IMG/VR virus record: IMGVR_UViG_3300029818_000001
Span: 10,576 to 74,575 of that record
From: a virus
Taxonomy: Duplodnaviria; Caudoviricetes
Length of the DNA: 64,000 bases
Strand: one strand, 5' to 3'
Shown here: one piece after another, positions 196 through 61,057 of the stretch
Position numbering within the stretch: the stretch's first letter is position 1
How the letters are laid out: the number at the start of each line of letters is the position of its first letter
Made by a program: the position numbers and the translations under genes
The notes under the pieces: model-generated
Told to the model about the DNA's origin: nothing
The model's database searches: none
Seen by the model: the letters and a program-made list of their open reading frames with translations, nothing else

Positions 196-211
196 AAGTC
201 ACTGATGACTT
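196..211. promoter_or_regulatory. Palindromic operator-like site (perfect)
   Basis: AAGTCA-CTGA-TGACTT upstream of terS. Confidence 0.7.
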
Positions 212-337
212 GCAGCAAACAAGTTGCGGTGTTATATTATCGCCTGTCTGGTTTTATATTTAATCCTCTTAAGGGCGCTACTTTTCCCTTCGTATCGTCA
301 GCCTTGACAATCAAGCGCCCGTCTTTTGAGAGGTTGT

Positions 338-1108
338 ATGTCTGATCAGCCCAACTCAACCACCAAAAACGCCTTCAAGGGCTTTAAAGGCTCTGCTGAT
401 CGCTCCGAGCAAAAGAAAGTCGAGGCTCGCGAAAAAGCGCATCAGCGCATCAAAAGGCGTGGCAATCCCGACGGTTTTAAAGCCGTCACGGAAGAGCAGA
501 TTAAGGCTCGCGCCGAATCTAAGAAAAAACCGAATCTTAAGCCGTCTCAGATCGCCGAAATGGAAGCGATGTGGGAATCCGGCGAGGTCACGCTAAAAGA
601 GCTGGCAGAGCGCTTTAATCGCAGTCAGGATAATATCTCCAGACACATGACGCTGAACGGCGTCGTCAAGGGTGCCAAAGCCGAAGAATACTCTCGAATG
701 ATTAAGGAGAAAATCGCTCAGGAGTTGATGGGTGATGTCGGCGAACACGCTAAAAGAATTCGGCAAGCCAAAGATTACGCGTTAGGCCAAATTGATCTCA
801 TCAAGAAGTTGGCGGCTAACGAAATCATCGGTGCCAAAAAGAAAAACCTCAATCTGAGCTCAACTCTGCCAGCTTTGCGAGCGCTTGACCAATATATGAA
901 GGTGGTGTCGGGCTGTCGAAATGAAGAATACATTTTATTGGGCATCAAGGAGTTCGAAGAGAAGGTTGAGCAAGAAGATATCCCAGAGTTGATTGTCACG
1001 GAGTTGACAGGTGAAGAGATCGAGCGCATGAGACAGGAGCAGCGCGAGTTCGATCAGATGGTTGACGAAGCGGATACGGATGTCAACGAGATAGTGGATG
1101 AGTCATAA
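338..1108 (+). CDS. Terminase small subunit (HTH)
   Basis: Directly precedes and overlaps TerL; HTH-like segment TLKELAERFNRSQDNISRHM. ATG at 338 preferred over the ORF-track start at 326. Confidence 0.75.
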   Translation: MSDQPNSTTKNAFKGFKGSADRSEQKKVEAREKAHQRIKRRGNPDGFKAVTEEQIKARAESKKKPNLKPSQIAEMEAMWESGEVTLKELAERFNRSQDNISRHMTLNGVVKGAKAEEYSRMIKEKIAQELMGDVGEHAKRIRQAKDYALGQIDLIKKLAANEIIGAKKKNLNLSSTLPALRALDQYMKVVSGCRNEEYILLGIKEFEEKVEQEDIPELIVTELTGEEIERMRQEQREFDQMVDEADTDVNEIVDES

Positions 1109-3614
1109 CAGGATAAGACTGCACCCCGGTCAGATGACCGTTTGGCAATCCCCCGCGCGGTTTCGCGTGGTGGTGGCAGGGCGCAGATGGGGCAAATGCT
1201 GCAAGGCCGGAACGCTCATAGCTATGAGCGATGGCAGCTATAAGCGCATTGAAGACGTGGCCTCTGGCGATCAGGTGTTAACCATAAGCGAGAAGACGTA
1301 TAGTCTTGAGTCGAAGGCCGTCAAGCATGTTCACGACAATGGCGTTAAGGATATCGTTCGCATCGTAACGAGGTCTGGCAAGAGACTCGAAGTAACGCCG
1401 AACCACCCCATTCTAGTCAACAATGTATGGACAGAGGCTAAGGACGTCAAGCTCGGTGATCTAGCGGCAATACCTAGAGCCACAGTGTTTGGCGTTGATG
1501 AAGTGCGCTCTTGCGAGATTGACTTCTTGGCTATTTGGCTTGCGGAAGGCGACAGTAGCGGATATACGAATCAAACGCCGGAAATCATTGATGTAATGAC
1601 GAAGGCGTGTGGCGAGATGGGTGTTGAATTTGTAGATTCGGCAACTGGCGATCGAAAAGCCGGTCTGTATTGGCGCTGGAGAGGCGTTAAGCCTAGAAGT
1701 AACGCATGTATAGACTTGTTGAAAAAACATGGTCTACGTCATAAAAATTCCAAGACAAAGTTCATTCCAGATTGCATATTTAGACTGCCAAAGAGTCAAC
1801 TTGCGCGTTTTCTAAATTTGTTCATTGCTTGCGATGGGTCTATAAATCGCCGGAGTAAAAATACATGGGCCGTTGAGATCGCTTTGGCAAATGAGAAAAT
1901 GACTGAGCAGATTGCTGACTTATTTTTGAAGTTTGGCATTAGAGGTCAAATTTCAAAGAAGGTTCATAAGGCGAAAAGTTCGGTCAGTGGCGACAACTTC
2001 ATCTCTTGGCGATTTATTGTGTCAGATAGTAAGTCACTAATTACTTTTTGCGATCAAATAGGCGCATTGAGTAAAGAAAGTAAAGTCGCTAGAGCGAAAT
2101 TGGCCGCGTCTGCATCAAGAGGTAGCTGTAATTCTTATTTGCCTATATCTCACGATGATTTTATCGAGCATCTAAGCTATAAGCCCGTGTTTAAAGGTAA
2201 GTATGGCGGCTACAACTGCGTTGTTTCGCGCGATTTACCAGAGGCTTTGAGAGAGAGATTGAATGGCTGGCGCAAGCAGACACCAAGTAGAGTTTCCGAG
2301 TATCGCTATTCATTCATCAGAGAGTTTGGCGATGGCTATTTTGATCCAATTGCAGATGGGGATTTTGCGTGGGATGAGATATCAGAGATCGAGTGTGTCG
2401 ATAAGGATCAAACCTATGATTTGACGGTTGATGGCAATCATAACTTTATCGCAAATGGTCTGGTTACGCATAATACCGCACTGTCGAAAGCCTTAATCAT
2501 CCGCTACGCCAAAATGCCGCGCCGCAAGGTCTGGTATGTTGCTCCAACCTACCGCATGGCGAAGCAGATCATGTGGCAAGATTTGCAGGACACGATACCT
2601 CCGAGATGGGTTCGTAAAATGAATGATACCTCGATGACCATTTGGCTCATCAATGGATCAGTCATTGAGCTTAAAGGCGCAGATAATCCCGATACTTTGC
2701 GCGGCGTAGGTTTGGATTTCGTGGTGTTGGACGAATATCAGGATATGTCCGAAGACACCTGGCATCGCGTCTTGCGTCCAACGATGGCAGATACGCGCGG
2801 TCATGCGCTTTTCATAGGTTCGCCAAAAAGTTATAACTTACTGCATGATGCTTATATTCTAGGTCAAGACCCGATTCGTGTCGCAAAGCGACAATGGCAG
2901 TCGTGGCAGTTTCCCACCATTACCAGTCCATTTATTCCCGTCGAAGAGATTGAGCAAGCTCGGCGCGATATGGATTCGAAATCGTTTGCTCAAGAGTTTT
3001 TGGCTTCGTTCGAAACAATGGCTGGTCGAGTTTATTACGCCTTCGATCGTCACACCCACGTCAAAAAGTGCGAATTCAACCCCAATTTGCCAATTTGGAT
3101 AGGTCAGGATTTTAATATCGACCCAATGTCTTCGATCATTATGCAGCCGCAGTTGGATGGTAGCATTTGGGTGGTGGATGAGATTGTCTTATTTGGCTCA
3201 AATACCGAAGAGAGCGTCGACGAGATCGAGCGAAGGTATTATCGCTATCGTAACAATGTCACCATATACCCGGACCCTGCCGGAACTCAGAGACAACACG
3301 CCAGAGGCGAAACCGATCTGGATATCTTCAGAGAGCGTGGCTTTCGACGCATTAAGCATCGCGCGCAACACCCTCGGGTGGCTGATCGCGTCAACTGCTT
3401 TAATAAGATGCTGAGATCGACAGACGGCACGATAAGACTGTATGTGGACCCAAGTTGCAAAGGCTTAATTGAGTCGCTGGAGCAGACGATTTATAAAAAA
3501 GGCTCCAGGGATATTGACAAATCCATTAGCGTCGATCATGCAACAGACGCCGCTGGCTACTGCCTAGAAGTGGAGTTTTCGCGCAAAGTCAAGATTTTGG
3601 GCGTCAGTATTTAA
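1098..3614 (+). CDS. terL: Terminase large subunit, intein-containing
   Basis: Walker A GRRWGK/T (split by the intein), YVAPT, Walker B VVLDE, nuclease motif GQDFNIDPMS, C-terminal DHATDAAGY. Confidence 0.95.
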   Translation: MSHNRIRLHPGQMTVWQSPARFRVVVAGRRWGKCCKAGTLIAMSDGSYKRIEDVASGDQVLTISEKTYSLESKAVKHVHDNGVKDIVRIVTRSGKRLEVTPNHPILVNNVWTEAKDVKLGDLAAIPRATVFGVDEVRSCEIDFLAIWLAEGDSSGYTNQTPEIIDVMTKACGEMGVEFVDSATGDRKAGLYWRWRGVKPRSNACIDLLKKHGLRHKNSKTKFIPDCIFRLPKSQLARFLNLFIACDGSINRRSKNTWAVEIALANEKMTEQIADLFLKFGIRGQISKKVHKAKSSVSGDNFISWRFIVSDSKSLITFCDQIGALSKESKVARAKLAASASRGSCNSYLPISHDDFIEHLSYKPVFKGKYGGYNCVVSRDLPEALRERLNGWRKQTPSRVSEYRYSFIREFGDGYFDPIADGDFAWDEISEIECVDKDQTYDLTVDGNHNFIANGLVTHNTALSKALIIRYAKMPRRKVWYVAPTYRMAKQIMWQDLQDTIPPRWVRKMNDTSMTIWLINGSVIELKGADNPDTLRGVGLDFVVLDEYQDMSEDTWHRVLRPTMADTRGHALFIGSPKSYNLLHDAYILGQDPIRVAKRQWQSWQFPTITSPFIPVEEIEQARRDMDSKSFAQEFLASFETMAGRVYYAFDRHTHVKKCEFNPNLPIWIGQDFNIDPMSSIIMQPQLDGSIWVVDEIVLFGSNTEESVDEIERRYYRYRNNVTIYPDPAGTQRQHARGETDLDIFRERGFRRIKHRAQHPRVADRVNCFNKMLRSTDGTIRLYVDPSCKGLIESLEQTIYKKGSRDIDKSISVDHATDAAGYCLEVEFSRKVKILGVSI
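1197..2474 (+). mobile_element. 426-aa intein with LAGLIDADG homing endonuclease in TerL
   Basis: Starts C(CKAGTLI), block B VTPNHP, LAGLIDADG-like FLAIWLAEGD and FLNLFIACDG, ends VTHN, +1 residue Thr. Confidence 0.95.
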
Positions 3615-3620
3615 AAAAAT

Positions 3621-3668
3621 AAGTCACCAGTGAATAAATTACTTGCGCCAGTAAGTAAGTAATGACAT
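3621..3668. promoter_or_regulatory. Two operator-like sites upstream of portal
   Basis: AAGTCA-CCAG-TGAATA (3621-3636) and AAGTAA-GTAA-TGACAT (3653-3668), with CATACT at 3666-3671. Confidence 0.55.
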
Positions 3669-3697
3669 ACTATTGATAAATTTTTCAATGGCTTGTG

Positions 3698-5233
3698 ATG
3701 GATCAAGAAAAACTTAGAAAATTGATCGAAAAGAGACATCCTGAGTATGTCGATCTTTTGCCGCACTGGCGCTTCTTAGAGTCCTGCTACAAGGGCGGCA
3801 GAGCGTGGTTTAAAGATAACATTTTTCGATACATCAAGGAAGGCGAAACCGAATACGGCGATCGCATAGATAGAGCTTATCGATTTAATCACTCGCGTGA
3901 AGTGGTGGATTTGGTCGACAAGTATCTATTTAAGGCGCCCATTATTCGCAACACCGGCGACGCTTCGGATGAGGTTATTCTGTTTTGGGATAAAGCAACC
4001 AAATCGGGCTTAACTATCGATCAATTCATGAAGCAGTTGTCCAGAAAGACCTCCATCTTCGGCTCGGCTTGGGTTATTGTCGACAACACCTTCGTCGTCA
4101 AAGAAGAAGGGGTGATTAGCGTTGCAGACATTAAGGACTCAGGCGGTCAAATCTTTTCTTACTTGGTTACTCCTGATCGCGCATTAGATTTCGCCTACGA
4201 TGAAGATGGCGAGCTGTTGTGGCTTTTGGTTTATGAGGAAGTCAGAGACTCGCAAGACCCGTTCGAATCCAGCGGCGAGATGATAGATCGCTATCGTCTG
4301 TGGACTAAGATGGGTTGGTATCTGTTTTCCACAAGTAAAAGCCAAACCATTGGCGGCGACATCGTTGTGAATATCGAAGATTCGGGCGAGCATGGCTTAG
4401 GCATCGTCCCAGGCTTTCGCGTAGATAACTACATCACTGATGAGTTGTGGGCTGCGCCATCGCTAATCGGCGACATTGCCTATCTCGACAGAGCTGTTGC
4501 CAACTACCTCTCCAATCTTGACGTTATTATTCAAGATCAAACCTTCTCTCAACTGATAATGCCAGCGCAAGGCTTAATGCCAGGTGATGACGACTATAAA
4601 AAGTTGATCGAGATGGGAACCAAGCGCATCTTTCTGTATGACGGGGAGCGAGGTGGCGAGCCGAAATATATCGGCCCAGACCCGAAACAAGCCAATGTGA
4701 TTGTTGGGGTTATCTCCAAAATCATTAACGAGATTTATCATACGGTCGGCATGGCCGGCGAGCGCACCAAACAAGACAATGCGGTGGGTATCGATAACAG
4801 TTCTGGCGTCGCTAAAGCCTTTGACTTCGAGCGCGTGAATTCCTTATTGACCTCCAAGGCCGCCTCTTTAGAGAACGCAGAGCGCAAATTAGTTAAGCTG
4901 GTCAATCTATGGGCCGGCAATAAGAGTTTCGATGACACGCTGGTTCAATACGCCAGATCGTTCGACGTTCGTAGCTTATTTGACGAGTTTGATATTGCCG
5001 CCAGACTGTCGCTGATGGAAGCGCCAGACTCGGTGCGTCGTGAACAAATGGACATTATGATTGATAAGCTTTTCCCGATGTTGGGTAGCGATGTCAAGAA
5101 TAAGATGCGAGCTGAGCTGAAATCTTGGCCGCCTAAGATGGAAGATATTTCTGTCGGACCTTCTCTTCTGCGCGGGGCGAAAGCCGCAAACAACGAGAGT
5201 GAGAAGGCTGAAGATGTTAAGGGAGCCGCCTAG
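3698..5233 (+). CDS. Portal protein
   Basis: ~511 aa directly after TerL; SPP1 gp6-like layout including the SGVAKAFDF segment. Confidence 0.85.
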   Translation: MDQEKLRKLIEKRHPEYVDLLPHWRFLESCYKGGRAWFKDNIFRYIKEGETEYGDRIDRAYRFNHSREVVDLVDKYLFKAPIIRNTGDASDEVILFWDKATKSGLTIDQFMKQLSRKTSIFGSAWVIVDNTFVVKEEGVISVADIKDSGGQIFSYLVTPDRALDFAYDEDGELLWLLVYEEVRDSQDPFESSGEMIDRYRLWTKMGWYLFSTSKSQTIGGDIVVNIEDSGEHGLGIVPGFRVDNYITDELWAAPSLIGDIAYLDRAVANYLSNLDVIIQDQTFSQLIMPAQGLMPGDDDYKKLIEMGTKRIFLYDGERGGEPKYIGPDPKQANVIVGVISKIINEIYHTVGMAGERTKQDNAVGIDNSSGVAKAFDFERVNSLLTSKAASLENAERKLVKLVNLWAGNKSFDDTLVQYARSFDVRSLFDEFDIAARLSLMEAPDSVRREQMDIMIDKLFPMLGSDVKNKMRAELKSWPPKMEDISVGPSLLRGAKAANNESEKAEDVKGAA

Positions 5234-6204: not shown

Positions 6205-6220
6205 AAGTCACGGATGACTG
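6205..6220. promoter_or_regulatory. Operator-like site upstream of major capsid gene
   Basis: AAGTCA-CGGA-TGACTG. Confidence 0.65.
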
Positions 6221-6272: not shown

Positions 6273-7202
6273 ATGGCATTACTCATTGATGAGGCTAAGA
6301 AGTTAAGTAACAACCAATTGGAAATCGGCGTCGTTGAAGAAATCATCGACAAAGAAGACCTCTTTTCCATTCTGCCGTTTATGTCGATCAACGGCAAGGC
6401 GTATGTCTACAACCGCGAAAACGCGCTGTCTGAAGGCGACTTTCTCGATCCAAGCGAAACCGTGAACGAAGGCGCGGCAACCTTCACTGAAGTTGTTGCC
6501 AAATTGCGCATTCTGATCGGCGACGTGGATGTCGATAAATTCATGCAAGGCACTTTGAGCGATCACAACAACCAAAAAGCGATTCAAATCGCTCAAAAGG
6601 CAAAGGGTCTCGCTCGTAAATTCAAACGCACTTTGGTTATTGGTAATGCAACCAGTTCGCCAAAAGAGTTTGACGGCTTGGGTGAAATTGCCAAAGCCAT
6701 CACTGTTGGCGACGCAAGCAGAACAGTTGCGGCAGCCACCAATGGTGCGGCTTTGAATCTGTCCATGCTGGATCGACTGTTGGATGCCGTGCCAAACGGC
6801 GCCGATGCGTTGTTTATGCCTTCTCCAGTCGTTCGTGCCTTCCGTGCGCTAATGAGAACTACTGGCGGCGGCACCTCTGCGGCTGAAATCATGATGCCAG
6901 CCTTCGGCCGTCCTATGTTGACGCATAACGGTGTGCCTATTCTGGTGAATGACTTCATTCCGCTGAATGAAACTCAGGGCACCGCGGATGGCGTAACCAC
7001 TTCCGTTTATGCCTTGCGCTTAAACGAATATGACGGCTTACACGGTCTGTATGGTGGCGGCACGGCGGGTATCGTTGTTGAAGACATTGGAACCGTTCAG
7101 GATAAGGACAGCACAAGAACGAGATTGAAGTGGTATTGCGGTTTAGCCTTGAAATCGACAAAATCGATGGCAAGACTGAAAGGCTTGACGAATATCGTTT
7201 AA
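6273..7202 (+). CDS. Major capsid protein
   Basis: 309 aa after the scaffold, strong RBS (AGGAGA), followed by a terminator; HK97-fold-like C-terminal RTRLKWYCGLAL. Confidence 0.85.
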   Translation: MALLIDEAKKLSNNQLEIGVVEEIIDKEDLFSILPFMSINGKAYVYNRENALSEGDFLDPSETVNEGAATFTEVVAKLRILIGDVDVDKFMQGTLSDHNNQKAIQIAQKAKGLARKFKRTLVIGNATSSPKEFDGLGEIAKAITVGDASRTVAAATNGAALNLSMLDRLLDAVPNGADALFMPSPVVRAFRALMRTTGGGTSAAEIMMPAFGRPMLTHNGVPILVNDFIPLNETQGTADGVTTSVYALRLNEYDGLHGLYGGGTAGIVVEDIGTVQDKDSTRTRLKWYCGLALKSTKSMARLKGLTNIV

Positions 7203-7308: not shown

Positions 7309-7324
7309 AAGTCACCTATAACTT
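7309..7324. promoter_or_regulatory. Operator-like site
   Basis: AAGTCA-CCTA-TAACTT just before the ORF at 7340. Confidence 0.6.
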
Positions 7325-7339: not shown

Positions 7340-7732
7340 ATGCCGCGCTTAATTATTAAACAACCTGGCATGGAGACCTACACCGGCTTTATGTCGGATG
7401 TCGAGTTCATTGATGGTATCAGCATCGAAGATGTGACTAAGTTGCAAGCGCAGCGCATCGCAGGTGCGATCGCTGTCGAGATGGAGGATGGCGCTGACCC
7501 CAGTGCTGCATCTGAATTGCTACGGTTAAAAGCAGATCAAGCTCAGCCTGAGTTCAAGGAGCCTGAAGCTGTCGCCCCAGTCAAGCCTAATTATGATTTT
7601 ACCGAAGAGTCTCTTATGGCGATTGCCGACAAGGATGGCATTATCGGTCTGCGTGAGTTCGCCAAGTCTTATGGCATCAAAAGCAACTCCATTATGGGCT
7701 TGATCGACGCTCTGTTGGCGCTCAAGGCTTAA
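7340..7732 (+). CDS. Hypothetical virion-associated protein
   Basis: 130-aa ORF with RBS in the head-gene block; short helical C-terminal domain. Confidence 0.65.
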   Translation: MPRLIIKQPGMETYTGFMSDVEFIDGISIEDVTKLQAQRIAGAIAVEMEDGADPSAASELLRLKADQAQPEFKEPEAVAPVKPNYDFTEESLMAIADKDGIIGLREFAKSYGIKSNSIMGLIDALLALKA

Positions 7733-7736
7733 TTGA

Positions 7737-8492
7737 GTGGATATCTACCGCAATAACCAATCTGTCGCACTGACGGTCGAAATTGACGGGCCTGCTCTGT
7801 CGGCTACTTATCGCGTTTTCGACCAAAATGATCAGGTTATTATCGACACCATAGAGGTTGCCGGATTTATCCAGAATAGCGTTGCTGTCGATATCATCGT
7901 CGACGCTGCGTTTAATCAGCTAGCCGAAGGTGAGGTTAGAGCCATGCGTCGCGTTGAGATTACGCCTTATGACGTAAATGGTGCGCTTAAAACCTCTACA
8001 GTCGAATACATTATCGAGGCTTTGCCGACATCGATCATAGGTGTCAACTCTTATCAGACGCTTAGTCAGGCTAAGTTGACCGCTATGGATATGCCTCATT
8101 TGGATATCTGGAACACAGCAGACGACAGAATGATTGTGTCGGCCATGACCGAGGCACACTTTCGATTGGGTCAGTTTGCTTATCGAATGGAAGACGATCG
8201 CGGTCTTGATATCGTGGTTGAGAACATCCGAAGCTTAACGATTAATGACTTGCTTTTGTTGCCATCAGCCTTTTTGATCGCCTTACGCAAGGCGCAAATA
8301 TCCGAAGCCGACATTGTGATGGGCGGTGGCTCAGTTCATCGCAAGCGTGAGGATGGTCTAATGAGTGACACCGTTGGTGAGTCCAAGATTATGTTTAGAC
8401 CTGGTAAGCCAGTTGTGTTGCCTGTGGATCGCCGCACCTTGAGCTACCTGAGCGGCTACATTTATCACGGATTGTCGCTAACCAGAACATGA
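7737..8492 (+). CDS. Head-tail adaptor/connector-like protein
   Basis: Position after capsid; GVNSYQTLSQA motif and C-terminal SDTVGESKIMF resemble adaptor proteins. Confidence 0.6.
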   Translation: MDIYRNNQSVALTVEIDGPALSATYRVFDQNDQVIIDTIEVAGFIQNSVAVDIIVDAAFNQLAEGEVRAMRRVEITPYDVNGALKTSTVEYIIEALPTSIIGVNSYQTLSQAKLTAMDMPHLDIWNTADDRMIVSAMTEAHFRLGQFAYRMEDDRGLDIVVENIRSLTINDLLLLPSAFLIALRKAQISEADIVMGGGSVHRKREDGLMSDTVGESKIMFRPGKPVVLPVDRRTLSYLSGYIYHGLSLTRT

Positions 8493-9247
8493 TTGATCTG
8501 ATTGATCGCACCTCGCTTAATGCGGCCACTCATTATGCCGACTTCATTCGGTCGCTGCGTGGTGAGTTATCGCGCATTATGAGTTTACCCAACCCTGGCT
8601 CGCCGTCTGCCCGTCGTCAATTTACTGCCGGTGGTCATCACTTGATCGAGAGTCATCTGGAGAGTATTTCGAGACTGCTGGATCAGGGCTTCGGCGAGAT
8701 ATGGGCGGGCGCACTTGGAAATGCTTTGACCGGCGAGGAAGCGAATGAAGATTTAAGGGGCTTGAGAGATAGTCTAGTCTCCGTTGTCGATGGAGGGCCG
8801 AATGATCACCTGCTGGCGGCGATACGGTCCTTCATGAGTAGAGATGTCGAATATGGCGCACAACAACTGAAGCGATTGGCTTTCGACATTGTGACCATGA
8901 TGTCTGATACGTCGCTCAATAATGCCATTCGCGGGGCGGTGGTGAAAAGCATCGTGGGGCGTCACAACTACACTCACAAAAATAACAAGGAATGGCCGAC
9001 AATTCGAAAGACCCGTCTGTCAATTCGGCATCATTTGCTTAAAACGCACAATGAGATAGTCATATTGGTCGGCACCTCTAAGGGAGAGCGTCAGTTTGTT
9101 GTTAAGAATGAATCTCAAGAACACCGCAATCATGGCATGGAGTTTACGATCGATAGAGACGGCGACTTACCCTGGTATCACGATATCGAAGCCACGGTAT
9201 TTCATCCGAACTCCCGATCGCTAGTGTCCAGAAAGGTAAGTAAATGA
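8489..9247 (+). CDS. Putative minor head protein (MuF/SPP1 gp7-like, divergent)
   Basis: C-terminal FHPNSRS resembles the HPNCRC signature; located in the neck region. Confidence 0.4.
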   Translation: MIDLIDRTSLNAATHYADFIRSLRGELSRIMSLPNPGSPSARRQFTAGGHHLIESHLESISRLLDQGFGEIWAGALGNALTGEEANEDLRGLRDSLVSVVDGGPNDHLLAAIRSFMSRDVEYGAQQLKRLAFDIVTMMSDTSLNNAIRGAVVKSIVGRHNYTHKNNKEWPTIRKTRLSIRHHLLKTHNEIVILVGTSKGERQFVVKNESQEHRNHGMEFTIDRDGDLPWYHDIEATVFHPNSRSLVSRKVSK

Positions 9248-9253
9248 TGACTG
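9238..9253. promoter_or_regulatory. Operator-like site
   Basis: AAGTAA-ATGA-TGACTG across the stop codon at 9247, upstream of 9273. Confidence 0.5.
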
Positions 9254-9272: not shown

Positions 9273-9620
9273 ATGATTTTTCCAAACGTCCCCTGTCGGA
9301 TTTTTCAGCTATTGGGTGACAAAGACGAATACGGCGAGAGTCAATACGCGCGACCAACGCCAGCGCATTGCTCGGTAGTCAAGCTAAGTAATAGCTCTAA
9401 ATCCACCAGCGTTAGAGCGGATAGCTCGGCCTCGCGGGGCAGCGCTAAGGAGGTATTGGCTGACGCGCGGCTGCTGTTTAGCGTCAATACGCAGATCAAA
9501 ATTGGCGATCGTCTGGAGATATACGGCTTTAAGCTGGAGGTGTCTAGCGTTCGTGCGCATTTTCAGGTCTTTCAGAACAAGATAGATCATTGGCAAGTGG
9601 ACTTAAACGCATGGGCGTAA
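9273..9620 (+). CDS. Head closure/head-tail joining protein
   Basis: 115 aa, beta-rich, N-terminal DEYGE turn; typical position. Confidence 0.6.
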   Translation: MIFPNVPCRIFQLLGDKDEYGESQYARPTPAHCSVVKLSNSSKSTSVRADSSASRGSAKEVLADARLLFSVNTQIKIGDRLEIYGFKLEVSSVRAHFQVFQNKIDHWQVDLNAWA

Positions 9621-10977: not shown

Positions 10978-10993
10978 AAGTCATTCGTGACTT
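10978..10993. promoter_or_regulatory. Palindromic operator-like site (perfect)
   Basis: AAGTCA-TTCG-TGACTT. Confidence 0.7.
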
Positions 10994-11731: not shown

Positions 11732-14700
11732 ATGAGCTTAGGTAAAATATCGATAGAGTTAGAGCTGAAGGATGGCAAGTTTGAGGCGAGAGCGATAAAA
11801 GCTGGCGCCGCCATCCGAGGGATGGAGACGGATTTCGCTCAACTCGACAGACGGGTCAAGGGCGTTGAGAGAACTATTGGCGGTTTTTTACCTAAGATTC
11901 GCGATTTGTCGATTGTAACGGCGGCAACTCATTCGATCATACATACCATTAATGGGACGATGATCGCTTGGACAAGTAGCGTCATTAATGCGAATGCTGA
12001 AATTGAGCGCATGAGCGCGCTCCTTCAGGGCTTGAGTTCCAGTCTGACCACCGATGGGCACATTAAAGAGGTCGCTGACGATATGGGCTATCTATTCGAC
12101 ATGGCTCAGAAGGCGCCCTTCTCGATAAAAGAGTTATCCAATTCTTTTGTGAAGATGAAGTCGGCTGGTCTTGAGGATGTCGATAAGAAGCTGGTGTCGA
12201 TCACCAACGCCATCGCCCGGTTTGGCGGCAATGACGAAATTCTTCATAGAGCCACCATTGCGATTCAACAAATGGCGTCAAAAGGCGTCATATCGATGGA
12301 AGAGTTGCGTCAGCAGTTGGGCGAGGCCGTTCCTAACGCCATGAATCTCATGGCTGACGGTCTTGGCATGCCCATGCAAAAAATGGTCGATCTGATTTCT
12401 CAGGGTCGAGTTAAAGCGGTCCCCGCTATCGACGCCATGATGGAGGAAATGGATCGAACCATGAGCGGTGCCGCCGTGCGCATGATGGATACTTGGAACG
12501 GCATGATGTCGCAGTTCTCAACCAAGTGGGCGCTGTTGCAAAAGCAGATCGGTGACGCAGGCTTTTTCGGCGCAGCTAAAGAAGGTATGGGTGAGGTTTT
12601 AAACTTCATGGATAGCGATAGCGCGCTAATAGCCATGAAGGCGGTTGGCGACGCCATGCGCGATGTCATCGAGGCCACCAAGCAAGCTGTTGTCTTTTTT
12701 AAGGAATATGGCGATATCATTCTGACGGTCGCGAAGGCGCTTGGGACTTTCTATACCACAGCTAAGATCGCCAGCTTTGGCGTAGCTGTGCTTAATCCAA
12801 AAAATATTAAAGCTGCCGCTGACGCCTTTAAAGGGTGGGGCGCCGCGATCTTGGAAGCAAGTGCGGCATCTCGAACGGTGATTACGCCCACCAAGCACAT
12901 GATGGGGATCGTTTTAGAGACTGCGACCTCAGTTCAGAAGGTTACACTAGGCACTCGCGCTTGGGGCGCAGCATTGGCTGCATTGGGTGGGCACGTTGGT
13001 GTTGCTATTGCCGGATTGACAGCTCTTTATTACGGCTACGAGGCGCTTAAGCCGAAGATTAATGAGTCGCTAGAGGCTGTCAAGAAATACGGTCGAGAGT
13101 TGGACGATATGGGCAAAATAAAGCCCAAGTTGTTCGATAAGAAAAGTATTGATGAGGCTGCTAGTGGGTTGAGATTTCTGAGAGAGGAATCTGAGAGAAC
13201 CAAGGCTAAGCTCAAGCAGATGGAGGCTGATAATATTCGGCTCCATCCAATCGCAAGAGGTCCAAATTTCGATAAAGATTTGGGGGAAGCGCGTCAGAGA
13301 ATGGCCGATATAACCGAGGAGATTAAAAACGCTCAGGTCAATATCGAAGACAGTATGAGCGCTCTGATCGACAGGGGAGTAAGGCGTCGCATCTCTATTA
13401 TGGAGAATGAGCGAGATGAGTCGATCGATATTTTCGGTCAGACCTACAAGCAGAAGGTTGATTTCGCTCGCAAAGAGCGCGAAGCGATTATTTCGGCAGG
13501 TGGCGATATAGAAAAGGCTGAAGCCGAATTTAACGAAACCAAGAGGAAGGCGGCTGAGGAGCTATATGTTTCGCGCACCGATGCTCTGAAAAAATATGTG
13601 TCTCAGTATGAGGCGCAAATGACTCAATTGGTTAATAAGAGCCAAGATATCGCGGTTTTAAGTGATGTCGATGTCAAGATAAAAATCAACGAAGAGTCTC
13701 TGGCGAATTTACAGCAGGATTATCTTAATTTGAAGGTTGCTATTGAAAACGCAACCACTCCAGACAGAAAGAGAGAGCTGGAGAATCAATTAAAAGATAT
13801 TACCAAAGAGATAAAGGGCGCCTCATCAGCTCTCGATAATTTAAAAAGACTACGCGATGGAATTCTAGGGAATCCAATAAGCGAAGATGACATTATAGCG
13901 TATAACTCAATCATGAGATCGATATCCGACGTTAATGGTAAGTTGACGGACATGGATGGCATTCTTGACAAATTGAGAAGCGGCGAGCCTATAAATGTCG
14001 ATGCCATAATCGATACTAACGTCGGCAAGCAAGCTACGGAGGCTATGGCTCAAGCTCGAAACGCCTATATAAAGGAAAGCAAGGCTCTTCTCAACAAGAA
14101 GAGAGAGGTTGCTGTGCTCATGAAAGAGCCTGATGGCTCCGCCTCTGGAAAGCATGCCGCAAGCCTAGAGGCGCAATTTAAAATTCAAGAGGATGCGCAG
14201 AAGAAGCATAATGAGCTAACTCTTGAACAGCTACAAAAGGTTGACCTTGCGATAGCGGATAGTGTCGATAGCTGGGACGGCATGGGGAAAAAGCTTACAG
14301 AGATTTACGCGCTTAATCGCAGAATAGCCGAGGAAGAGTTTAGAGCGAGAAAGGCTCTAAACCCTAGAGAGGCTAAGGAAATTGATAATTCGGACGCGAT
14401 AAGAGAGAGTGAGCGCCTTCAATCGAAGCTGAACAGTTTAAGAGATGAGGCGGAAAGAGTCTCTGCCACGCCAAGTGTCGAAAACACAGATGCGCTGATG
14501 GCCATTAGAGAGAAGGTCAAGGAAACAGAAAAAGAACTTCAAATAAATGACCAGCTTATCGCCAAGATAGATGAGGCAAATGACGCCTATCGAAGAAGCG
14601 CCAATGTAAAAGCTGATGTGGCTGATAAGAAAAAGGCTGAAGCGGCAGCTGAAAGAGACCGCATTGGGAGAGAAAAGCTTTCCGAGCAAGAGATGAGACA

Positions 14701-16293: not shown

Positions 16294-16309
16294 AAGTCAC
16301 AGGTGATAT
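16294..16309. promoter_or_regulatory. Operator-like site overlapping a -10-like TATACT
   Basis: AAGTCA-CAGG-TGATAT; TATACT at 16307-16312. Confidence 0.55.
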
Positions 16310-27112: not shown

Positions 27113-27122
27113 TATAATAAGT

Positions 27123-37008: not shown

Positions 37009-37022
37009 GTCATTGGTGACTT
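37007..37022. promoter_or_regulatory. Palindromic operator-like site (perfect)
   Basis: AAGTCA-TTGG-TGACTT. Confidence 0.7.
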
Positions 37023-39230: not shown

Positions 39231-39269
39231 AAGTAGCTCTGGCACACTCTCGGCACAGTGAGAAAAATT

Positions 39270-41324: not shown

Positions 41325-41340
41325 AAGTCACCTATGAATA
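41325..41340. promoter_or_regulatory. Operator-like site
   Basis: AAGTCA-CCTA-TGAATA directly before the cobT-like RBS. Confidence 0.55.
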
Positions 41341-43290: not shown

Positions 43291-43306
43291 AAGTCATGGA
43301 TGACTT
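43291..43306. promoter_or_regulatory. Palindromic operator-like site (perfect)
   Basis: AAGTCA-TGGA-TGACTT. Confidence 0.7.
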
Positions 43307-44525: not shown

Positions 44526-45055
44526 TGTATAGCCCGCCTCGCTGTTTTGGTCTTGCCTCGATGCACGGGGCAGACCCTAAGATTTGCGGCGATTGCGCCT
44601 TCGAGCCGGAATGTCGCGTCGCCGCCACGAAAATGATGAATGCTCTGCAAAAGCGCATTACTTTGGGTAATGTCAGAGTAATGCGCTCTGCGGTCGCCCC
44701 AGTTGCGGATGAGGTTAAGCCAATTGATGCGCCAATATCCACAGGTTTAAGCAAGATGGCTCTGGCTTTGCTTAGCAAGATTGTCGCTGCCAATGTTAAT
44801 TTGAGCGAATTGGCGACGCATCGCGTTAATCCATTTCCGCCGACCTTTAAGCGGGCGCATCTGCGCGGTATCGCCAATCTTCTATTAAGCGAACGGTGGG
44901 TGTCAGAGAGCGAAATTGTAGCTTTGCTAATTGAGACTCACGCCATGAGTGAGAAGAGCGCGAGCGTAGAGTGTCGCCTAATTAAAGAGATTTTGGCGCT
45001 TTTGGATATTGTCGAGCTTTCTAGCAAAAGCATGAAATTAAAGGAAAAACAATGA
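44525..45055 (+). CDS. Hypothetical protein with N-terminal Cys4 motif
   Basis: CFG...CGDCAFEPEC; ATG at 44525 coupled to the cobS stop. Confidence 0.65.
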   Translation: MYSPPRCFGLASMHGADPKICGDCAFEPECRVAATKMMNALQKRITLGNVRVMRSAVAPVADEVKPIDAPISTGLSKMALALLSKIVAANVNLSELATHRVNPFPPTFKRAHLRGIANLLLSERWVSESEIVALLIETHAMSEKSASVECRLIKEILALLDIVELSSKSMKLKEKQ

Positions 45056-48893: not shown

Positions 48894-50852
48894 GTGATAA
48901 ATAAATACCAAAGAGAAAGCATTGCTCTGCTGGAGCAAACGCCGGAGCGGGTAATAAGAAGATTGGACGAAGACATTTTGATTGCGGTGATTAAAGCGTG
49001 CAATGTGGAATACAGAGGTGGTAAACCGATAGTCTCTGATTTATTTTACGATTCGGTGCTGATTGAGGAGCTACGCAGACGCGACCCTAATCATGAGTTC
49101 TTGAAAAGCGTTGAGCCAGAACCGGAATTAATCGAAGGCAAGACGGTTCAGTTGCCACAACGAATGCTGTCGACCGATAAGGCTTATTCGATCGACGCGA
49201 TTGAAAAGTGGGTGAATCGAGTCGCTAAAGAAGCGGCTGAGGTTGGTTTCGGTCGAAACGATCTGATATTTAAGGTGACGCCTAAGCTTGACGGGTTTGC
49301 GGCCTATGACGATGGCGAACGACTTTACACGCGCGGCGACGGCTATAGAGGCACGGATATCACGCGAGCATTTGAGAATGGTCTTGACATTCTTGGTCGT
49401 TGCGTTAGCGACACTGATGAGGAGTTGCGCGGCAAAGGCCCGGGTGAAATCGTCGTATCGAAGGCTTATTTCGACGAGCATCTGTCTGACAAATACGAAA
49501 ACAGCAGAAATGTAATCGCCAGCGTGATTAAAGAAGGCGAGCTTGATATTGAAATCAAAACAGCCATTGCGAATAAAGCGATTTTATTTGCGCCTTTCTC
49601 GATGCTAAATTGCTGCGTCATTGACGCCAATGTCTTGCTTGAGGATTTCGAGCAAATTAGAGAGGAGATGCTTAATTCCATTTTCGATGTCGACGGCATA
49701 GTTATCGAATGCATCAATGAGCCAGTAAAGCAGCACATGAGTCACACCAGTCATCATCATCGTTGGCAAATCGCTTTCAAGGAAAATACCGAATATCACG
49801 ATATTGAAGTTGAAGGTTTAGCATGGCAAACATCGAAGACTGGCCGCATTACGCCAGTTGTTCAACTTAAGCCGACCAAAGTTTCGGGCGTAACTATCTC
49901 GCGAGCCACGGGCCATCATTATGGTAATGTGCAAAGTAAAGGTATCGACGCTGGGGCGGTCGTTAAAGTGTGTCGCAGCGGCTTAGTGATTCCCTATATT
50001 GAAAGCGTTGTTACGCCGGTGAGCGCCATAAATGTTCCAGCGTGGTGTCCAAGCTGTAGTGCGCCTACTCATATCGATGGCGACAATCTGCTATGCACCA
50101 ATACCGTCGATTGCCCTGCTCAAATCGAGCGCACCATTGAGTATTTCTTTAAAACCATCGGCAACTGCGACGGCTTCGGCCCAAAAATAATCCAGCAGTT
50201 AGTTGGGCAGTATCCCGATATTTCTATTATCGACGTTTACACAGGTGGCGGTGACACTCGTGGGATGAATAAGTATTTTGGTAGGGCCGGCATTGGTCAG
50301 GGTATTGGTAACAATCTCATCGACGAGCTTGAGCGAAGCAAAAAAGAGCCAATCGAAGACTGGCGCTTTCTTGCGGCCTTCTCAATCCCGAATGTCGGTA
50401 AGGGTGGCTGCGAGCGTCTTCTAAAACATCATCGTCTTGAAGATGTGTTCAATCTAACGGTTGACCAGATTGTTGAAATCGATGGTTTTGCCAAAAAAAC
50501 CGCTACGGCGCTTGTTGAGGCACTAGATCGCATAAAATCTAGTTTCGACGCGCTGTATTCGCTCGGTTTCAATCTAATTCGAACGCCACTAAATAGCGAA
50601 AAAACGGCGATTTCAAGCGCGATATCGAATAAAACGATTGTATTCACCGGCTCGATGAAATCGGGCAGCAGAGACGAATTACAGAGTGGGGCGAGGGCGC
50701 TCGGGGCTAATGTTGCTTCGTCTGTCACCAGTAAGACAGATTATTTGGTTTGCGGCGATAAGGTGGGCGCTTCGAAGACTGAAGCGGCTGTGAAAAAAGG
50801 CGTCAAAGTGTTGACAGAAGAGGTTTATTTAAAACTGTTGGGAGATTTATGA
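48894..50852 (+). CDS. ligA: NAD-dependent DNA ligase
   Basis: KLDG, TRGDG, VDGIV, IAFK, GRITPV, Zn finger CPSC..C..C, HhH, BRCT IVFTG. Confidence 0.95.
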   Translation: MINKYQRESIALLEQTPERVIRRLDEDILIAVIKACNVEYRGGKPIVSDLFYDSVLIEELRRRDPNHEFLKSVEPEPELIEGKTVQLPQRMLSTDKAYSIDAIEKWVNRVAKEAAEVGFGRNDLIFKVTPKLDGFAAYDDGERLYTRGDGYRGTDITRAFENGLDILGRCVSDTDEELRGKGPGEIVVSKAYFDEHLSDKYENSRNVIASVIKEGELDIEIKTAIANKAILFAPFSMLNCCVIDANVLLEDFEQIREEMLNSIFDVDGIVIECINEPVKQHMSHTSHHHRWQIAFKENTEYHDIEVEGLAWQTSKTGRITPVVQLKPTKVSGVTISRATGHHYGNVQSKGIDAGAVVKVCRSGLVIPYIESVVTPVSAINVPAWCPSCSAPTHIDGDNLLCTNTVDCPAQIERTIEYFFKTIGNCDGFGPKIIQQLVGQYPDISIIDVYTGGGDTRGMNKYFGRAGIGQGIGNNLIDELERSKKEPIEDWRFLAAFSIPNVGKGGCERLLKHHRLEDVFNLTVDQIVEIDGFAKKTATALVEALDRIKSSFDALYSLGFNLIRTPLNSEKTAISSAISNKTIVFTGSMKSGSRDELQSGARALGANVASSVTSKTDYLVCGDKVGASKTEAAVKKGVKVLTEEVYLKLLGDL

Positions 50853-51086: not shown

Positions 51087-51102
51087 AAGTCATGGATGAC
51101 TA
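51087..51102. promoter_or_regulatory. Operator-like site
   Basis: AAGTCA-TGGA-TGACTA, overlapping TATACA. Confidence 0.65.
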
Positions 51103-51160: not shown

Positions 51161-51718
51161 ATGTTTACTGAAGAAGAAATGGCTGAGGTTGAGTTTTTGG
51201 AGCAAGAAGAAAAGCTCAGAGGCAAGCCGGCGCCCAAGAAATCCGTCCGAGTATTTATCAATCCAGAGCAATTCAAAGAGGATGTGTCGATCAATCTGTC
51301 GGACTTAAATGGGTGCTTTTTAGAGCAGGCGTCTTTATTTGCGCACTACGGAATGATGGCGGCAAAAGCATCGGAACAGGCTGACAACCTTAAGATGATG
51401 CTTGAGATAAAAGAGGCTCAGTTGAATACGGAACATCGCGAAAGGCTGTTAATTTTTGGCGGCAAAGTTACCGAGCAGATGGTGACAAATGCAGTATTGA
51501 CCGATACTCGCTATATCAAGGTTAGAAAGGCGTATAACGAAGCGAAAGGTGTTTTGGAAATGCTTAAGACCGCGCCCGAGGCTTTTAGGCAGCGTCGGGA
51601 TATGCTGATTCAGATCGGCACCAACGCTCGTGAAGAAATGAAGGGCGATTTGTTCATGAAATCGAAAGAACAGAAGGATGCTGACTTGCGCGAACGCACT
51701 CGTAAGGCAGTTGCGTAG
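51161..51718 (+). CDS. Coiled-coil protein, possibly a UvsY-like recombination mediator
   Basis: Helical, AGGAG RBS, directly before the SSB-like gene. Confidence 0.45.
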   Translation: MFTEEEMAEVEFLEQEEKLRGKPAPKKSVRVFINPEQFKEDVSINLSDLNGCFLEQASLFAHYGMMAAKASEQADNLKMMLEIKEAQLNTEHRERLLIFGGKVTEQMVTNAVLTDTRYIKVRKAYNEAKGVLEMLKTAPEAFRQRRDMLIQIGTNAREEMKGDLFMKSKEQKDADLRERTRKAVA

Positions 51719-51743: not shown

Positions 51744-51759
51744 AAGTCATAAATGACTT
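51744..51759. promoter_or_regulatory. Palindromic operator-like site (perfect) overlapping TATAAT
   Basis: AAGTCA-TAAA-TGACTT; TATAAT at 51759-51764. Confidence 0.7.
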
Positions 51760-55156: not shown

Positions 55157-55234
55157 CAATTACCAGACATTTGCTCTAGCACTCCCTGATTGCGCGTGAG
55201 AAAATAAGTCGCTAATAACAAAAAGAGATTAATT

Positions 55235-55640: not shown

Positions 55641-55726
55641 GTGGGCGATTTGTCAAACAGTAGTAAATCCTATCTCTGCGTGAGAAAATAAGTCACTGTT
55701 TAATTACTACATAGGAGTGTGTCGCA

Positions 55727-56116
55727 ATGCTATCGGTTGCAACGATCTGTTTGGCAATGAACATTTATCACGAATCAAGAGGGGAGCCGCTGATAGGTCA
55801 GTATGCGGTGGCTCATGTCACAATGAATCGCGTAGAGAGTGAAAAGCACCCCAATGATGTGTGCGGTGTGGTCTTCAAGAAGGGGGCTTTTCACTGGACG
55901 GCGGATAAGCGAAGCGTCGAGATCGCAGCAAAAAAGATGAAAAAGCAATTAGAGCTGGAGAGTTGGTCGATGTCGGTTTTGATCGCTAAGAACGTATTGG
56001 CTGGACGCTCAAAAGACATAACTCGTGGCGCTTTGTTTTTTAATGAGAAATCGATGGGTCGCCGTTTTAAAACCAATGTGCCGACCTTAAAAATAAGTAG
56101 CCACATTTTTTACTAA
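55727..56116 (+). CDS. Cell wall hydrolase, SleB/Hydrolase_2 family
   Basis: CLAMNIYHESRGEP, VAHVTMNR, CGVV...FHW, HIFY. Confidence 0.85.
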   Translation: MLSVATICLAMNIYHESRGEPLIGQYAVAHVTMNRVESEKHPNDVCGVVFKKGAFHWTADKRSVEIAAKKMKKQLELESWSMSVLIAKNVLAGRSKDITRGALFFNEKSMGRRFKTNVPTLKISSHIFY

Positions 56117-59764: not shown

Positions 59765-60248
59765 CTATGGGTTAAATCTTGAGGAGCTGATTTCGTCAAT
59801 CAATGAAGACCTTGCAGACCTTCATACGTCAAACTCTGTTGGACTTCCGACATTTGTGGCTCATTCGCCCATTAGCGTGGCGATAAAGACGGACATGGGT
59901 TGGCGCACCACCAATCTGATGGGTGACACCGTGACCCTCATCGGCTTAAGAATTGGAATTAAGGCGGTGATTTGTCAATTTTTAAATGGCTACTCCAGCC
60001 CCTTGAATTGCTACCCAGGCTTTGACGGAGTTGGCTTAATCGAGATAGGTCTCGCCAAAAGTGAGGCTTCTTTGAGCGACTTCAAGGAGTGGTTACTGAT
60101 TCAGATAGATTTGGAGTGCTATCTATCTGAATACATCGAGAAGCATGAGCTAGACGTAGGTCACTTTAAGAAAAACAAGGTGAAAAAGGTGAGTGTAGAG
60201 AGAAATAAAATTGAGAGACCTGCTGACACATTATGGGGGAGCTGGTAG
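59751..60248 (+). CDS. Hypothetical protein ending WGSW
   Basis: 165-aa ORF overlapping the end of sbcC. Confidence 0.55.
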   Translation: MLKDSYGLNLEELISSINEDLADLHTSNSVGLPTFVAHSPISVAIKTDMGWRTTNLMGDTVTLIGLRIGIKAVICQFLNGYSSPLNCYPGFDGVGLIEIGLAKSEASLSDFKEWLLIQIDLECYLSEYIEKHELDVGHFKKNKVKKVSVERNKIERPADTLWGSW

Positions 60249-60295
60249 CGAAGCGCTTGAGGCCATTTTGATAACATATTTCAAACGAGGTGAAT

Positions 60296-60457
60296 ATGAA
60301 AGACCATGAGATAGCAATACTGGTTAACTGCATTCGCGATAAGTTAAACGAGCGTATACCCAACTTGCCACAATGTCTTCGCGGGCTAATTAGCGAAGCG
60401 GTGGTTGACAGTCTGGAGAAGCAAGGCTTAAGAGTTGATAAAAAGGAAAGCGAATGA
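60296..60457 (+). CDS. 53-aa hypothetical protein (below ORF-track cutoff)
   Basis: GAGGTG RBS; MKDHEIAILVN...; TGA overlaps the ruvC ATG. Confidence 0.6.
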   Translation: MKDHEIAILVNCIRDKLNERIPNLPQCLRGLISEAVVDSLEKQGLRVDKKESE

Positions 60458-61032
60458 ATGAAATTAAAATTGTGGGTATTGACCCATCGCTACGCAACTT
60501 TGGCGTAGTAAGAGCGACGATTAACCCCGACAGTTTGGTGGTATCGATCGAGTCTGTTCGTCTAATACAGCCCTCGGAGAACAAGACGGCTAAAAAACAG
60601 GTGAGAAAAAACAGCGACGATTTGCGCCGAGCTAGATGGTTGCAGAGTAATATGATTGAAGCGTGTCGCGATTGCGCCTTCGCGCTTGTCGAAATGCCCG
60701 TAGGTTCGCAATCTGCGAGAGCGATGGCTAGTTACGGGATAGTTACGGGCGTGTTATCGAGCTGCCCAATACCTATTATCGAAGTAACGCCAACAGAAGT
60801 TAAGCTGGCTGGCGCCGGCCATAAAACCGCATCGAAGCAGGAGATGATAGATTGGGCAGTAGACAAGCACCCTGAGGCAAAGTGGTTGCGCCGTAAGCTA
60901 AAGAGCGAGATGGTTTTGATGGGTGGCAATGAGCATATCGCGGATGCGTTGGCAGCTATCTACGCAGGCATCAATAGCGAACAATTTAAAACTGCTCTGG
61001 CTATGTATAGGCAATTGAATAAAGCCGCCTAA
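60454..61032 (+). CDS. ruvC: RuvC-like Holliday junction resolvase
   Basis: VGIDPSLRNFG, VEMP, ASKQEMI, EHIADALA. Confidence 0.88.
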   Translation: MNEIKIVGIDPSLRNFGVVRATINPDSLVVSIESVRLIQPSENKTAKKQVRKNSDDLRRARWLQSNMIEACRDCAFALVEMPVGSQSARAMASYGIVTGVLSSCPIPIIEVTPTEVKLAGAGHKTASKQEMIDWAVDKHPEAKWLRRKLKSEMVLMGGNEHIADALAAIYAGINSEQFKTALAMYRQLNKAA

Positions 61033-61041
61033 TTTTAAAGT

Positions 61042-61057
61042 AAGTAACGGGTGAATG
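61042..61057. promoter_or_regulatory. Degenerate operator-like site upstream of nrdA
   Basis: AAGTAA-CGGG-TGAATG. Confidence 0.45.

Follow-up and report, generated by a model that had tools for sequence, protein, structure and literature searches.

The repressors of lambdoid phages act at two clustered operator regions, and in plasmid RK2 the KorB protein, a member of the ParB family, exerts global silencing at 12 OB palindromes. In phage P1 the operators are asymmetric 17-mers, and the late structural operons are governed indirectly through Lpa. The C1 repressor of P1 acts on operators dispersed over the genome, represses the adjacent promoters and maintains lysogeny (PMC8198154). The L5/cluster A repressor (gp71) has numerous stoperators throughout the genome, the structural genes included, and can stop elongation in addition to repressing the early promoter; it is a monomeric, two-domain repressor with an asymmetric recognition sequence (PMC9283540). 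Here we analyze the dispersed palindrome AAGTCA-N4-TGACTT in a 64,000-nt stretch of phage DNA, which comprises bases 10576-74575 of the 74,575-bp IMG/VR record IMGVR_UViG_3300029818_000001 (G000, rated 68% complete). This stretch is called the window, and positions refer to it unless stated otherwise.

An earlier note on this DNA had proposed that one dimeric regulator, probably the XRE-type protein encoded at 40242-40637, uses operators before almost all transcription units, those of the capsid and tail genes included. At the level of sequence, this proposal is supported by our analysis. We consider it probable that the palindrome is a double-stranded DNA operator for a dimer of a phage helix-turn-helix (HTH) repressor, most likely the XRE protein. 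The 10-bp spacing of the half-sites, the lack of covariation of the kind a hairpin would show, the presence of sites at the same operons in six genomes and their position in several promoter registers all point to an operator, and the XRE protein is suggested by its cI/Cro fold and by a phyletic pattern which, among 38 conserved proteins, goes with the motif. Taken separately, it is highly probable that the site is the operator of a phage-encoded protein and quite likely that repression is its main role, while for the XRE protein as the reader we have a moderate preference.

Perfect copies of AAGTCA-N4-TGACTT are present at five sites in the window (196, 10978, 37007, 43291 and 51744), with 0.00 expected, and with up to two mismatches there are 21 copies vs 2.96 +/- 1.79 expected. 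The coordinates that had been given before for these perfect copies and for one-mismatch copies at 6205, 7309, 27123, 34163 and 51087 check out. The copies listed as degenerate at 3621, 3653, 9238, 16294, 40865, 41325 and 55690 all have two mismatches, and the still more degenerate ones at 61042 (three mismatches) and 55206 (four mismatches) have kept the prefix AAAT/AAGT and score well with a position matrix. Three sites had been overlooked, two of them within genes (2031 and 44076) and one on the minus strand (40714-40729). Additional matches at 35898 and 48200 are probably due to chance. According to the matrix, which was trained on the sites of the earlier note, the conserved block is about 20 bp long, with a nearly invariant T at -1 and a frequent A at +16. 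The extended consensus is A-T-AAGTCA-N4-TGACTT-A-T, and in G000 the sites are preceded by the A-rich AAAT or AAGT. The mostly intergenic placement is real: 17 of the 25 sites in the record lie between genes, despite a coding density of about 92% (noncoding DNA makes up about 8% of the window, and nearly all genes are on the plus strand). Three of the record's sites are found in its first 10.5 kb, outside the window; the score of one of them, at record position 4172-4187 before a gene on the minus strand, is higher when the site is read in the minus orientation.

The same palindrome is found in related phages. Five complete relatives were found through the motif, namely G001 (115 kb, GC content 44%), the provirus G002 (55%), G003 and G004, both with terminal repeats and a GC content of about 60%, and G005 (61%). 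Together with G000 they make up the six genomes counted below, among which protein identity is only 25-65%. In the five relatives, TAAGTCA-N4-TGACTT with at most one mismatch is present in 10-33 copies per strand, and the reversed control pattern in none. At a coding density of 90-93%, 24-38 of 40-50 sites are intergenic in four of the relatives (38 of 43 in G001) and 14 of 29 in the fifth. A scan of viral contigs with the extended motif yielded more than 117 stretches, many of them on contigs of 96-115 kb, and more than 100 IMG/VR contigs carry the motif. A site precedes the orthologous gene in all six genomes for the ParB-like protein, the portal, the CobS-like protein and the gp32-like single-stranded DNA-binding protein (SSB), and in five of six for the divergent helicase, the terS-like protein, the head protein, gene 7340 and CobT, while operon-internal genes have a site in none of the six. 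That the sites have stayed at the same orthologs despite this low protein identity is the signature one would expect of a conserved regulon.

The isolated phages nearest by DnaE, with about 42-44% amino acid identity, are Rhizobium phage RHEph10, Stenotrophomonas phage ANB28 and Pseudomonas phage nickie. Two of these, nickie and ANB28, are lytic; they have kept the same core genes and harbor zero copies of the motif, and no dispersed palindromes above shuffle level were detected in them. In RHEph10 we found the palindrome AGTCAAT-N0/N4-ATTGACT. Escherichia phage Cyrano, an SSU5-like E. coli phage-plasmid which matches 33 of the 38 conserved record proteins with 25-61% identity, has other dispersed palindromes, AAACAA-N-TTGTTT (12 copies) and TAAGTA-N2-TACTTA (8 copies). 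The comparison with the lytic relatives suggests that operators and repressor may be gained or lost jointly. A full-text literature search that included the motif revealed no published account of dispersed operators for this lineage or for SSU5/pHCM2. In nickie (L205), a repeated non-palindromic intergenic element, roughly GCGCTC-aTAAT ... CAAACAGCGAG, was found in the gaps 4888-4990, 7065-7165, 12390-12470 and 18355-18440. It precedes several replication genes and is possibly a phage-specific promoter plus leader.

For the analysis of the dyad and of promoters, 102 sites with co-directional flanking genes were used. Among 129 pair cells deviating from the consensus dyad, 110 are broken, 18 are G.U only and a single one is compensated, which indicates selection on base identity in both half-sites and not on pairing. 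The pairs T3/A12 and A5/T10 are essentially invariant, and the recurrent variants (AAGTAAG...TGACTT, TGAGTT, TGAACT and TGAATT) alter one arm only. The centres of the half-sites are 10 bp apart, as is the case in the 434 and P22 operators. Such a geometry is that of an HTH dimer bound to double-stranded DNA.

Promoters around the 102 oriented sites were predicted by scoring the sigma-70 consensus with a threshold of 8. The centre of the site is exactly at -41.5 from the predicted start in nine cases, at -19.5 or -18.5 in 20 cases and between -1.5 and +11.5 in about 20 cases; given the high false-positive rate of the predictions, the last class (+1 to +12) is suggestive only. At -41.5, the final two Ts of the site are the start of a TTGnnn -35 hexamer, and 17 bp further on there is a -10 hexamer of the type TAnnAT. 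Most CobS promoters of the family are built in this way. In the window this layout is found at three perfect sites: 196-211 before the terS-like gene (predicted promoter TTGCAG-17-TATATT overlapping the right end; orthologous site in five of six genomes), 37007-37022 (TTGTAA-17-TACAAT, also overlapping the right end) and 43291-43306 before the CobS-like gene (-10 hexamer TATTAT at 43328; site in all six genomes).

In the class at -19.5, the last T of the site opens the -10 hexamer, which is often a perfect TATAAT, and the site fills the spacer. About 10 of 17 such promoters have a good TTGnnn-type -35, for example TTGACA-18-TAGTAT and TTGCAG-17-TATAAT. Thus many of them are near consensus and should fire unaided. 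The perfect site 51744-51759, which precedes the gene for the gp32-like SSB in all six genomes, belongs to this class, its last T being the first base of TATAAT at 51759. The one-mismatch site 34163-34178, before the genes for an Hfq-like protein and a 468-aa protein (34550-35956), has TATACT at 34177 and the register -18.5. These two cases bear out, as members of a family-wide register, the former claim that a -10-like hexamer stands 13-15 bp from the site start; it does not hold for the site at 16294, which has a better promoter upstream, and the hexamers at 3666 and 51101 are weak.

At sites of the downstream class, a strong promoter is predicted just upstream. The one-mismatch site 27123-27138 directly follows TTGAGC-17-TATAAT (centre at +5.5). 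The two-mismatch site 16294-16309, located after the tape-measure gene and 9 nt before a minor tail gene (16318), follows TTTACC-17-TACAAT with the -10 at 16283 (centre at +6.5), and the one-mismatch site 7309-7324, 16 nt before gene 7340-7732, follows TTTACA-18-TAGAGT (centre at +1.5; five of six genomes). Other sites lack a credible promoter and lie 0-20 nt ahead of a ribosome-binding site. These are the one-mismatch site 6205-6220 before the major head protein gene (no convincing prediction; five of six genomes), the roadblock-like two-mismatch site 9238-9253 between genes 8489-9247 and 9273-9620, and the two-mismatch site 41325-41340, 10 nt before the CobT-like gene (41350-43263; five of six genomes). 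The perfect site 10978-10993 is also promoterless and lies just past the stop codon of an Ig-domain tail protein gene (assigned by a PHROG match, the match to a major tail protein being weak), ahead of a terminator-like hairpin. The CobS promoter of G001 has two sites, one centred at -41.5 and the other about 25 nt past the predicted start. This downstream site and the promoterless sites are compatible with a putative roadblock to elongating polymerase.

The remaining sites in the window complete the picture. Two degenerate sites, 3621-3636 and 3653-3668, with centres 32 bp apart, precede the portal gene, where a site is found in all six genomes. The one-mismatch site 51087-51102 is located before gene 51161-51718. 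The degenerate site 55206-55221 and the two-mismatch site 55690-55705, the latter before the cell-wall hydrolase gene, both have the prefix TGAGAAAAT, and the three-mismatch site 61042-61057 precedes the gene for the large subunit of ribonucleotide reductase. Within genes there are a one-mismatch site in the terminase large subunit gene (2031-2046) and a two-mismatch site in the CobS gene (44076-44091). The sites stand a median of 18.5 nt behind the preceding stop codon and 27 nt ahead of the following start codon. In a comparison of the half-sites, the upstream one is better conserved (29 vs 71 mismatches; 44 vs 19 sites, p=0.002), a mild polarity which can be explained by the downstream half doubling as part of a -35 or -10 hexamer. 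One box in several registers at otherwise competent promoters argues for an operator and not for a promoter element or a dedicated activator site.

The candidate reader is encoded on the minus strand (40242-40637), beside the integrase gene, and faces an open reading frame (ORF) of 71 codons (40984-41199) in the Cro position. The XRE protein of 131 aa has a weak Pfam match to HTH_37 and PHROG matches to "transcriptional regulator". Its AlphaFold2 model comprises a five-helix cI/Cro domain (residues 11-90, pLDDT about 82-95) followed by low-confidence helices, and in Foldseek it aligns with P22 C2, 434 cI/Cro, ImmR and DdrO with target-normalised TM-scores of about 0.8 and an rmsd of 1.6-2 A. 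No Peptidase_S24 match was found in Pfam, the C-terminal part being helical and of low model confidence; since this domain is lacking, induction probably does not proceed via RecA-stimulated self-cleavage.

Homologues of the XRE protein are present in all five motif-bearing relatives and always adjoin the CobT-like gene. The gene order integrase, XRE, 71-codon ORF, CobT is the same in Cyrano, and in G002-G004 an integrase homologue is located near XRE. In nickie and ANB28 neither integrase nor XRE is found between the ligase and CobT genes, and no XRE homologue was detected in these phages at E<0.1. Among the 38 record proteins conserved in at least four of the five motif-bearing relatives, only XRE and a 127-aa protein are missing from both nickie and ANB28. 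The 127-aa protein is also missing from G001, the site-richest genome, and XRE is present in all five. Of the conserved record proteins, XRE thus appears to track the motif best. In the XRE alignment, 8 of 12 invariant columns are in or just after helix 3. The Cyrano homologue is diverged, with a different helix 3, and the XRE helix of RHEph10 is nearer to that of G000; with their own dispersed palindromes, both phages agree with this pattern. The Cyrano homologue, CYRAN_45, was described as a putative repressor which is transcribed 10-fold above the prophage background in an E. coli LF82 lysogen (PMC9928086).

Several observations weigh against a repressor function of the site or against the XRE protein as its reader. 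First, an antisense control scores at least 8 at 46 of the 102 sites, so that only the sharp peaks at -41.5 and -19.5 are firm, and the exact register of -41.5 is the classic position of a class II activator. Second, the co-occurrence of XRE and motif is based on few, phylogenetically nested lineages. Third, a scan of bacterial genomes with the helix-3 signature N[IVL][IM]TM[FIL]KQG yielded 38 loci, and the motif is carried by only four of them, all syntenic family members (L180, L188 (Massilia), L193 and L204 (Vibrio)). The other 34 loci, mostly from Methylococcaceae, are unrelated and have no such palindrome near the gene. Helix 3 alone therefore does not specify AAGTCA, and conservation of the recognition helix was dropped as proof of specificity. 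Fourth, the XRE control region contains degenerate sites only, which are not significant against the intergenic background. Fifth, the record is incomplete, and a 145-aa orphan protein encoded outside it (L132:16622-17059 in G004) has a matching phyletic pattern: it is common to G001-G005 and absent from nickie, ANB28, Cyrano and RHEph10. It was not found in the 68% complete G000 record.

The sites at the XRE gene deserve a separate comment. On the minus strand, the degenerate site 40714-40729 (AAGTCACCGCATAAAT) directly follows a TATAAT at 40735-40730 and is a candidate autoregulatory operator on the gene's own promoter. The two-mismatch site 40865-40880 lies in the divergent region between XRE and the ORF in the Cro position. 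Each of the 10 family members has a site, with 1-3 mismatches, no more than 320 bp upstream of its XRE gene (P=0.07-0.26 each at the genome-wide density). Against the intergenic background, such autoregulatory sites are unconvincing.

If XRE is not the reader, the same operators could be bound by another protein, i.e. a ParB-like protein as in the case of RK2 KorB, a product of the missing third of the genome, or a host factor. We regard this as unlikely. It would fit that two ParB_N proteins are encoded in all relatives and that their divergent promoter has the site in all six genomes, that the XRE helix signature is not restricted to motif-bearing phages, that the record is incomplete, and that the phyletic pattern of the 145-aa orphan is the same. 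However, nickie and ANB28, which lack the motif, have conserved the ParB-like proteins, the ABC ATPase and every other core protein to the same degree, and the ParB-like proteins were rejected as readers, their homologues in these two phages being 32-40% identical in the presence of zero motif copies. To the eye the 145-aa orphan seems acidic; neither Pfam nor PHROG gave a match for it, and it may act as an antirepressor or in some other role within the lysogeny circuit. Against a host factor speak the syntenic members in contigs labelled Vibrio and Massilia, the range of GC content from 44 to 61% and the loss of the motif in lytic relatives.

In phage P1, the late promoters served by Lpa have a -10 hexamer and an inverted repeat near -22, lack a -35 and belong to late genes only. 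By analogy, the palindrome could be an activator box at which a phage dimer recruits RNA polymerase, either in this way or as a class II activator at -41.5. In line with this, most orthologous CobS promoters retain the exact -41.5 register, no -35 hexamer is recognisable in about 7 of 17 promoters of the -19.5 class, and the upstream half-site is the better conserved one. Nevertheless we find an activator box, the alternative offered in the earlier note, rather improbable, although it keeps some probability for the -41.5 class. The site occurs in at least three registers, some copies lying behind predicted starts and some 0-15 nt ahead of a start codon, and many of the promoters are near consensus without help. 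The same box is found on replication, lysis and structural genes, which would provide no temporal order. Further, the lytic relatives lost the box along with the lysogeny module, and a box needed for lytic expression should have remained. As to the Lpa type in particular, about 10 of 17 members of the -19.5 class have a -35, and the box is also present at -41.5, downstream of starts and at replication genes.

A combination of both functions is conceivable. At PRM, lambda cI is a class II activator, and a bifunctional dimer might silence the structural, lysis and most other operons from the -19.5 and downstream sites and activate, as a class II activator, from the conserved -41.5 sites. To this we likewise assign a low probability. 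If true, selected operons such as CobS-DnaE would be kept expressed in the prophage or plasmid state, and one operator in differing registers would encode a whole lysogeny programme across hosts of 44-61% GC.

It is very improbable that the element is a phage-specific promoter for a phage RNA polymerase or sigma factor. A size of 16-20 bp, the polarity relative to genes and the position before most operons would agree with such a promoter, and between CobS and DnaE a protein with sigma-70 region 2 is encoded in RHEph10 (L154:10604-11239), G002 and G004 (L131:11203-11931). Yet no RNA polymerase gene was found among the window proteins searched, and the sigma-like gene was detected neither in G000 nor in G001, a complete genome and the richest in sites. 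A palindrome with a 4-bp spacer is also at odds with the spacing of sigma -35 and -10 elements, and canonical sigma-70 hexamers stand at fixed registers around the sites. The 184-aa ORF 44501-45055 was considered as a sigma homologue and rejected; it matches RHEph10 gp046 instead. Finally, a nucleic-acid hairpin, be it a signal for RNA processing or translation, an attenuator or a cruciform in the DNA, was rejected and is given hardly any credence, although the arms of 6-8 bp are able to pair, sites occur in 5' leaders or between cistrons and those at 10978 and 37007 are immediately ahead of larger hairpins, since compensatory changes are essentially absent (one of 129 deviating cells, vs 110 broken), variants in one arm recur, the stem is too short and weak for RNase III and no Rfam family matches the site.

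Coming back to the palindrome as an operator of the XRE repressor, we infer binding of the XRE protein to the site, repression as its consequence, and transcription starts where the predicted hexamers place them. In a lysogen, an XRE dimer would occupy about 20 operators in the window, on or just behind host-type sigma-70 promoters. Where the operator overlaps the -35 (register -41.5) or fills the spacer and touches the -10 (register -19.5), initiation would be blocked, and where it is located at +1 to +12 or in short intergenic gaps, promoter escape or elongation would be blocked. The packaging, head, tail, lysis, replication and nucleotide-metabolism operons could thus be silenced directly, without a regulatory cascade. 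If the repressor were lost, all units would be released simultaneously; the trigger is probably not RecA-mediated self-cleavage.

If correct, this provides a testable wiring diagram, with one operator at about 20-40 sites and one repressor, for temperate siphophages of about 110 kb, a lineage which is widespread and unstudied and whose related contigs are labelled Vibrio, Massilia and Methylococcales, among others. The cascade-free direct silencing known from P1 and L5 would be extended to a dimeric repressor of the cI/Cro type with palindromic operators. In metagenomic contigs of the family, the motif could be used as a compact marker for promoters, operons and a temperate or lytic lifestyle.

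The record is that of a siphophage of about 110 kb, to which SSU5-type phage-plasmids are distantly related. Genes were assigned by Pfam and PHROG searches of the window proteins. Isolated phages gave no match to the window or to locus L005 in Megablast, and a peptide-pattern search with DnaE in viral contigs found nothing. Of the core genes of the SSU5/pHCM2-like supergroup, we found those for DnaE, CobS/CobT, the terminase large subunit (terL), portal, head, SbcCD-like proteins and a RuvC-like resolvase. The packaging and head genes encode the terS-like DNA-binding protein (326-1108), the terminase large subunit (1098-3614), the portal (3695-5233) and a scaffold followed by the major head protein (6273-7202). 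Size and place alone assign a 1514-aa protein to the tape-measure position and one of 2588 aa to the tail-tip position. Other products are PhoH, the Hfq-like protein, the 468-aa protein and a 351-aa conserved protein. They are accompanied by a tyrosine integrase (39258-40226), the CobT-like and CobS-like proteins, a DnaE-type polymerase with a C-terminal uracil-DNA glycosylase (UDG) domain, an NAD-dependent ligase, the gp32-like SSB, an SbcCD-like pair, the RuvC-like resolvase, the cell-wall hydrolase (55727-56116) and the intein-interrupted large subunit of ribonucleotide reductase (61100-64000), which runs off the end of the window.

Some of these genes show additional features. A block of about 12 genes (26483-32605) is without homologue in any relative. 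Outside this comparison, the gene 28582-30111 is 51% identical to a contig of a Methylococcales metagenome-assembled genome (L171); taken with the large number of XRE homologues in Methylococcaceae, this may indicate a methanotroph host. The 99-aa protein with similarity to Hfq (34251-34550) has a sub-threshold match (E 4.8e-6, 26.5 bits vs a cut-off of 27); the gene ends in a stop codon that overlaps the beginning of gene 34550, and homologues were detected in G002 and G004 only. At a distance of 120 bp upstream of the integrase gene there is a tRNA-Leu (CAG) gene on the minus strand (39051-39137); it may encode a tRNA of the phage or indicate where the attachment-site region lies. In the DnaE-type polymerase III alpha subunit (45052-48381), the uracil-DNA-glycosylase superfamily domain comprises residues 961-1093, and the same DnaE-UDG fusion is named in the RHEph10 annotation. 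The NAD-dependent DNA ligase (48894-50852) has no homologue in G001-G005, which have an ATP-dependent ligase at a different locus (G004 60149-61570; RHEph10 gp037), apparently a case of non-orthologous replacement. In the large subunit of ribonucleotide reductase an ATP-cone is present, and the intein carries a LAGLIDADG endonuclease domain, with Pfam matches to Intein_splicing and LAGLIDADG_3 within residues 451-799. At the start of the record, outside the window (G000 bases ~9-125, locus L152), there are at least six tandem copies of the 19-bp unit ATGTTATAACATAACAGAG. This iteron-like array might be a replication origin or an artefact of the contig end.

The strategy of dispersed operators is itself known from P1 and L5, and its occurrence here is mechanistically unsurprising and well supported by comparison. 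The likeness to RK2 KorB consists in dispersed palindromes on a mobile element, varied distances to promoters and the presence of ParB-like genes, but here the ParB-like proteins are equally present in motif-less relatives. With lambdoid cI/Cro, 434 and P22 C2 the system shares the five-helix HTH, half-sites one helical turn apart, the neighbouring integrase gene and the divergent small ORF. It differs from them by its approximately 20-40 dispersed sites and by the lack of a detectable S24 peptidase domain. Cyrano has the same core genes, an XRE gene between integrase and CobT and dispersed palindromes, while the latter have other sequences and the recognition helix of its XRE protein is diverged; in the family described here the hosts are environmental and one motif spans GC contents of 44-61%. 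Our sites tend to lie in short intergenic gaps and have a polarity relative to transcription, which may recall the stoperators of L5. In contrast to L5, they are a symmetric dyad with both halves conserved and with T3/A12 and A5/T10 invariant, not the asymmetric site of a monomeric repressor, and the polarity is mild and explained by the overlap with promoter hexamers. P1 is similar in having dispersed operators at promoters, more than 10 copies of one operator at or near promoters (about 20 in the window) being a trait of the C1 type, and the phage studied here is likewise a large temperate phage with plasmid-prophage relatives. However, in place of an asymmetric 17-bp operator and a C1-family protein, we find a dyad and a candidate protein with a cI/Cro fold, and this true palindrome, fit for a dimer of the cI/Cro type, is located directly on the head, tail and packaging operons.

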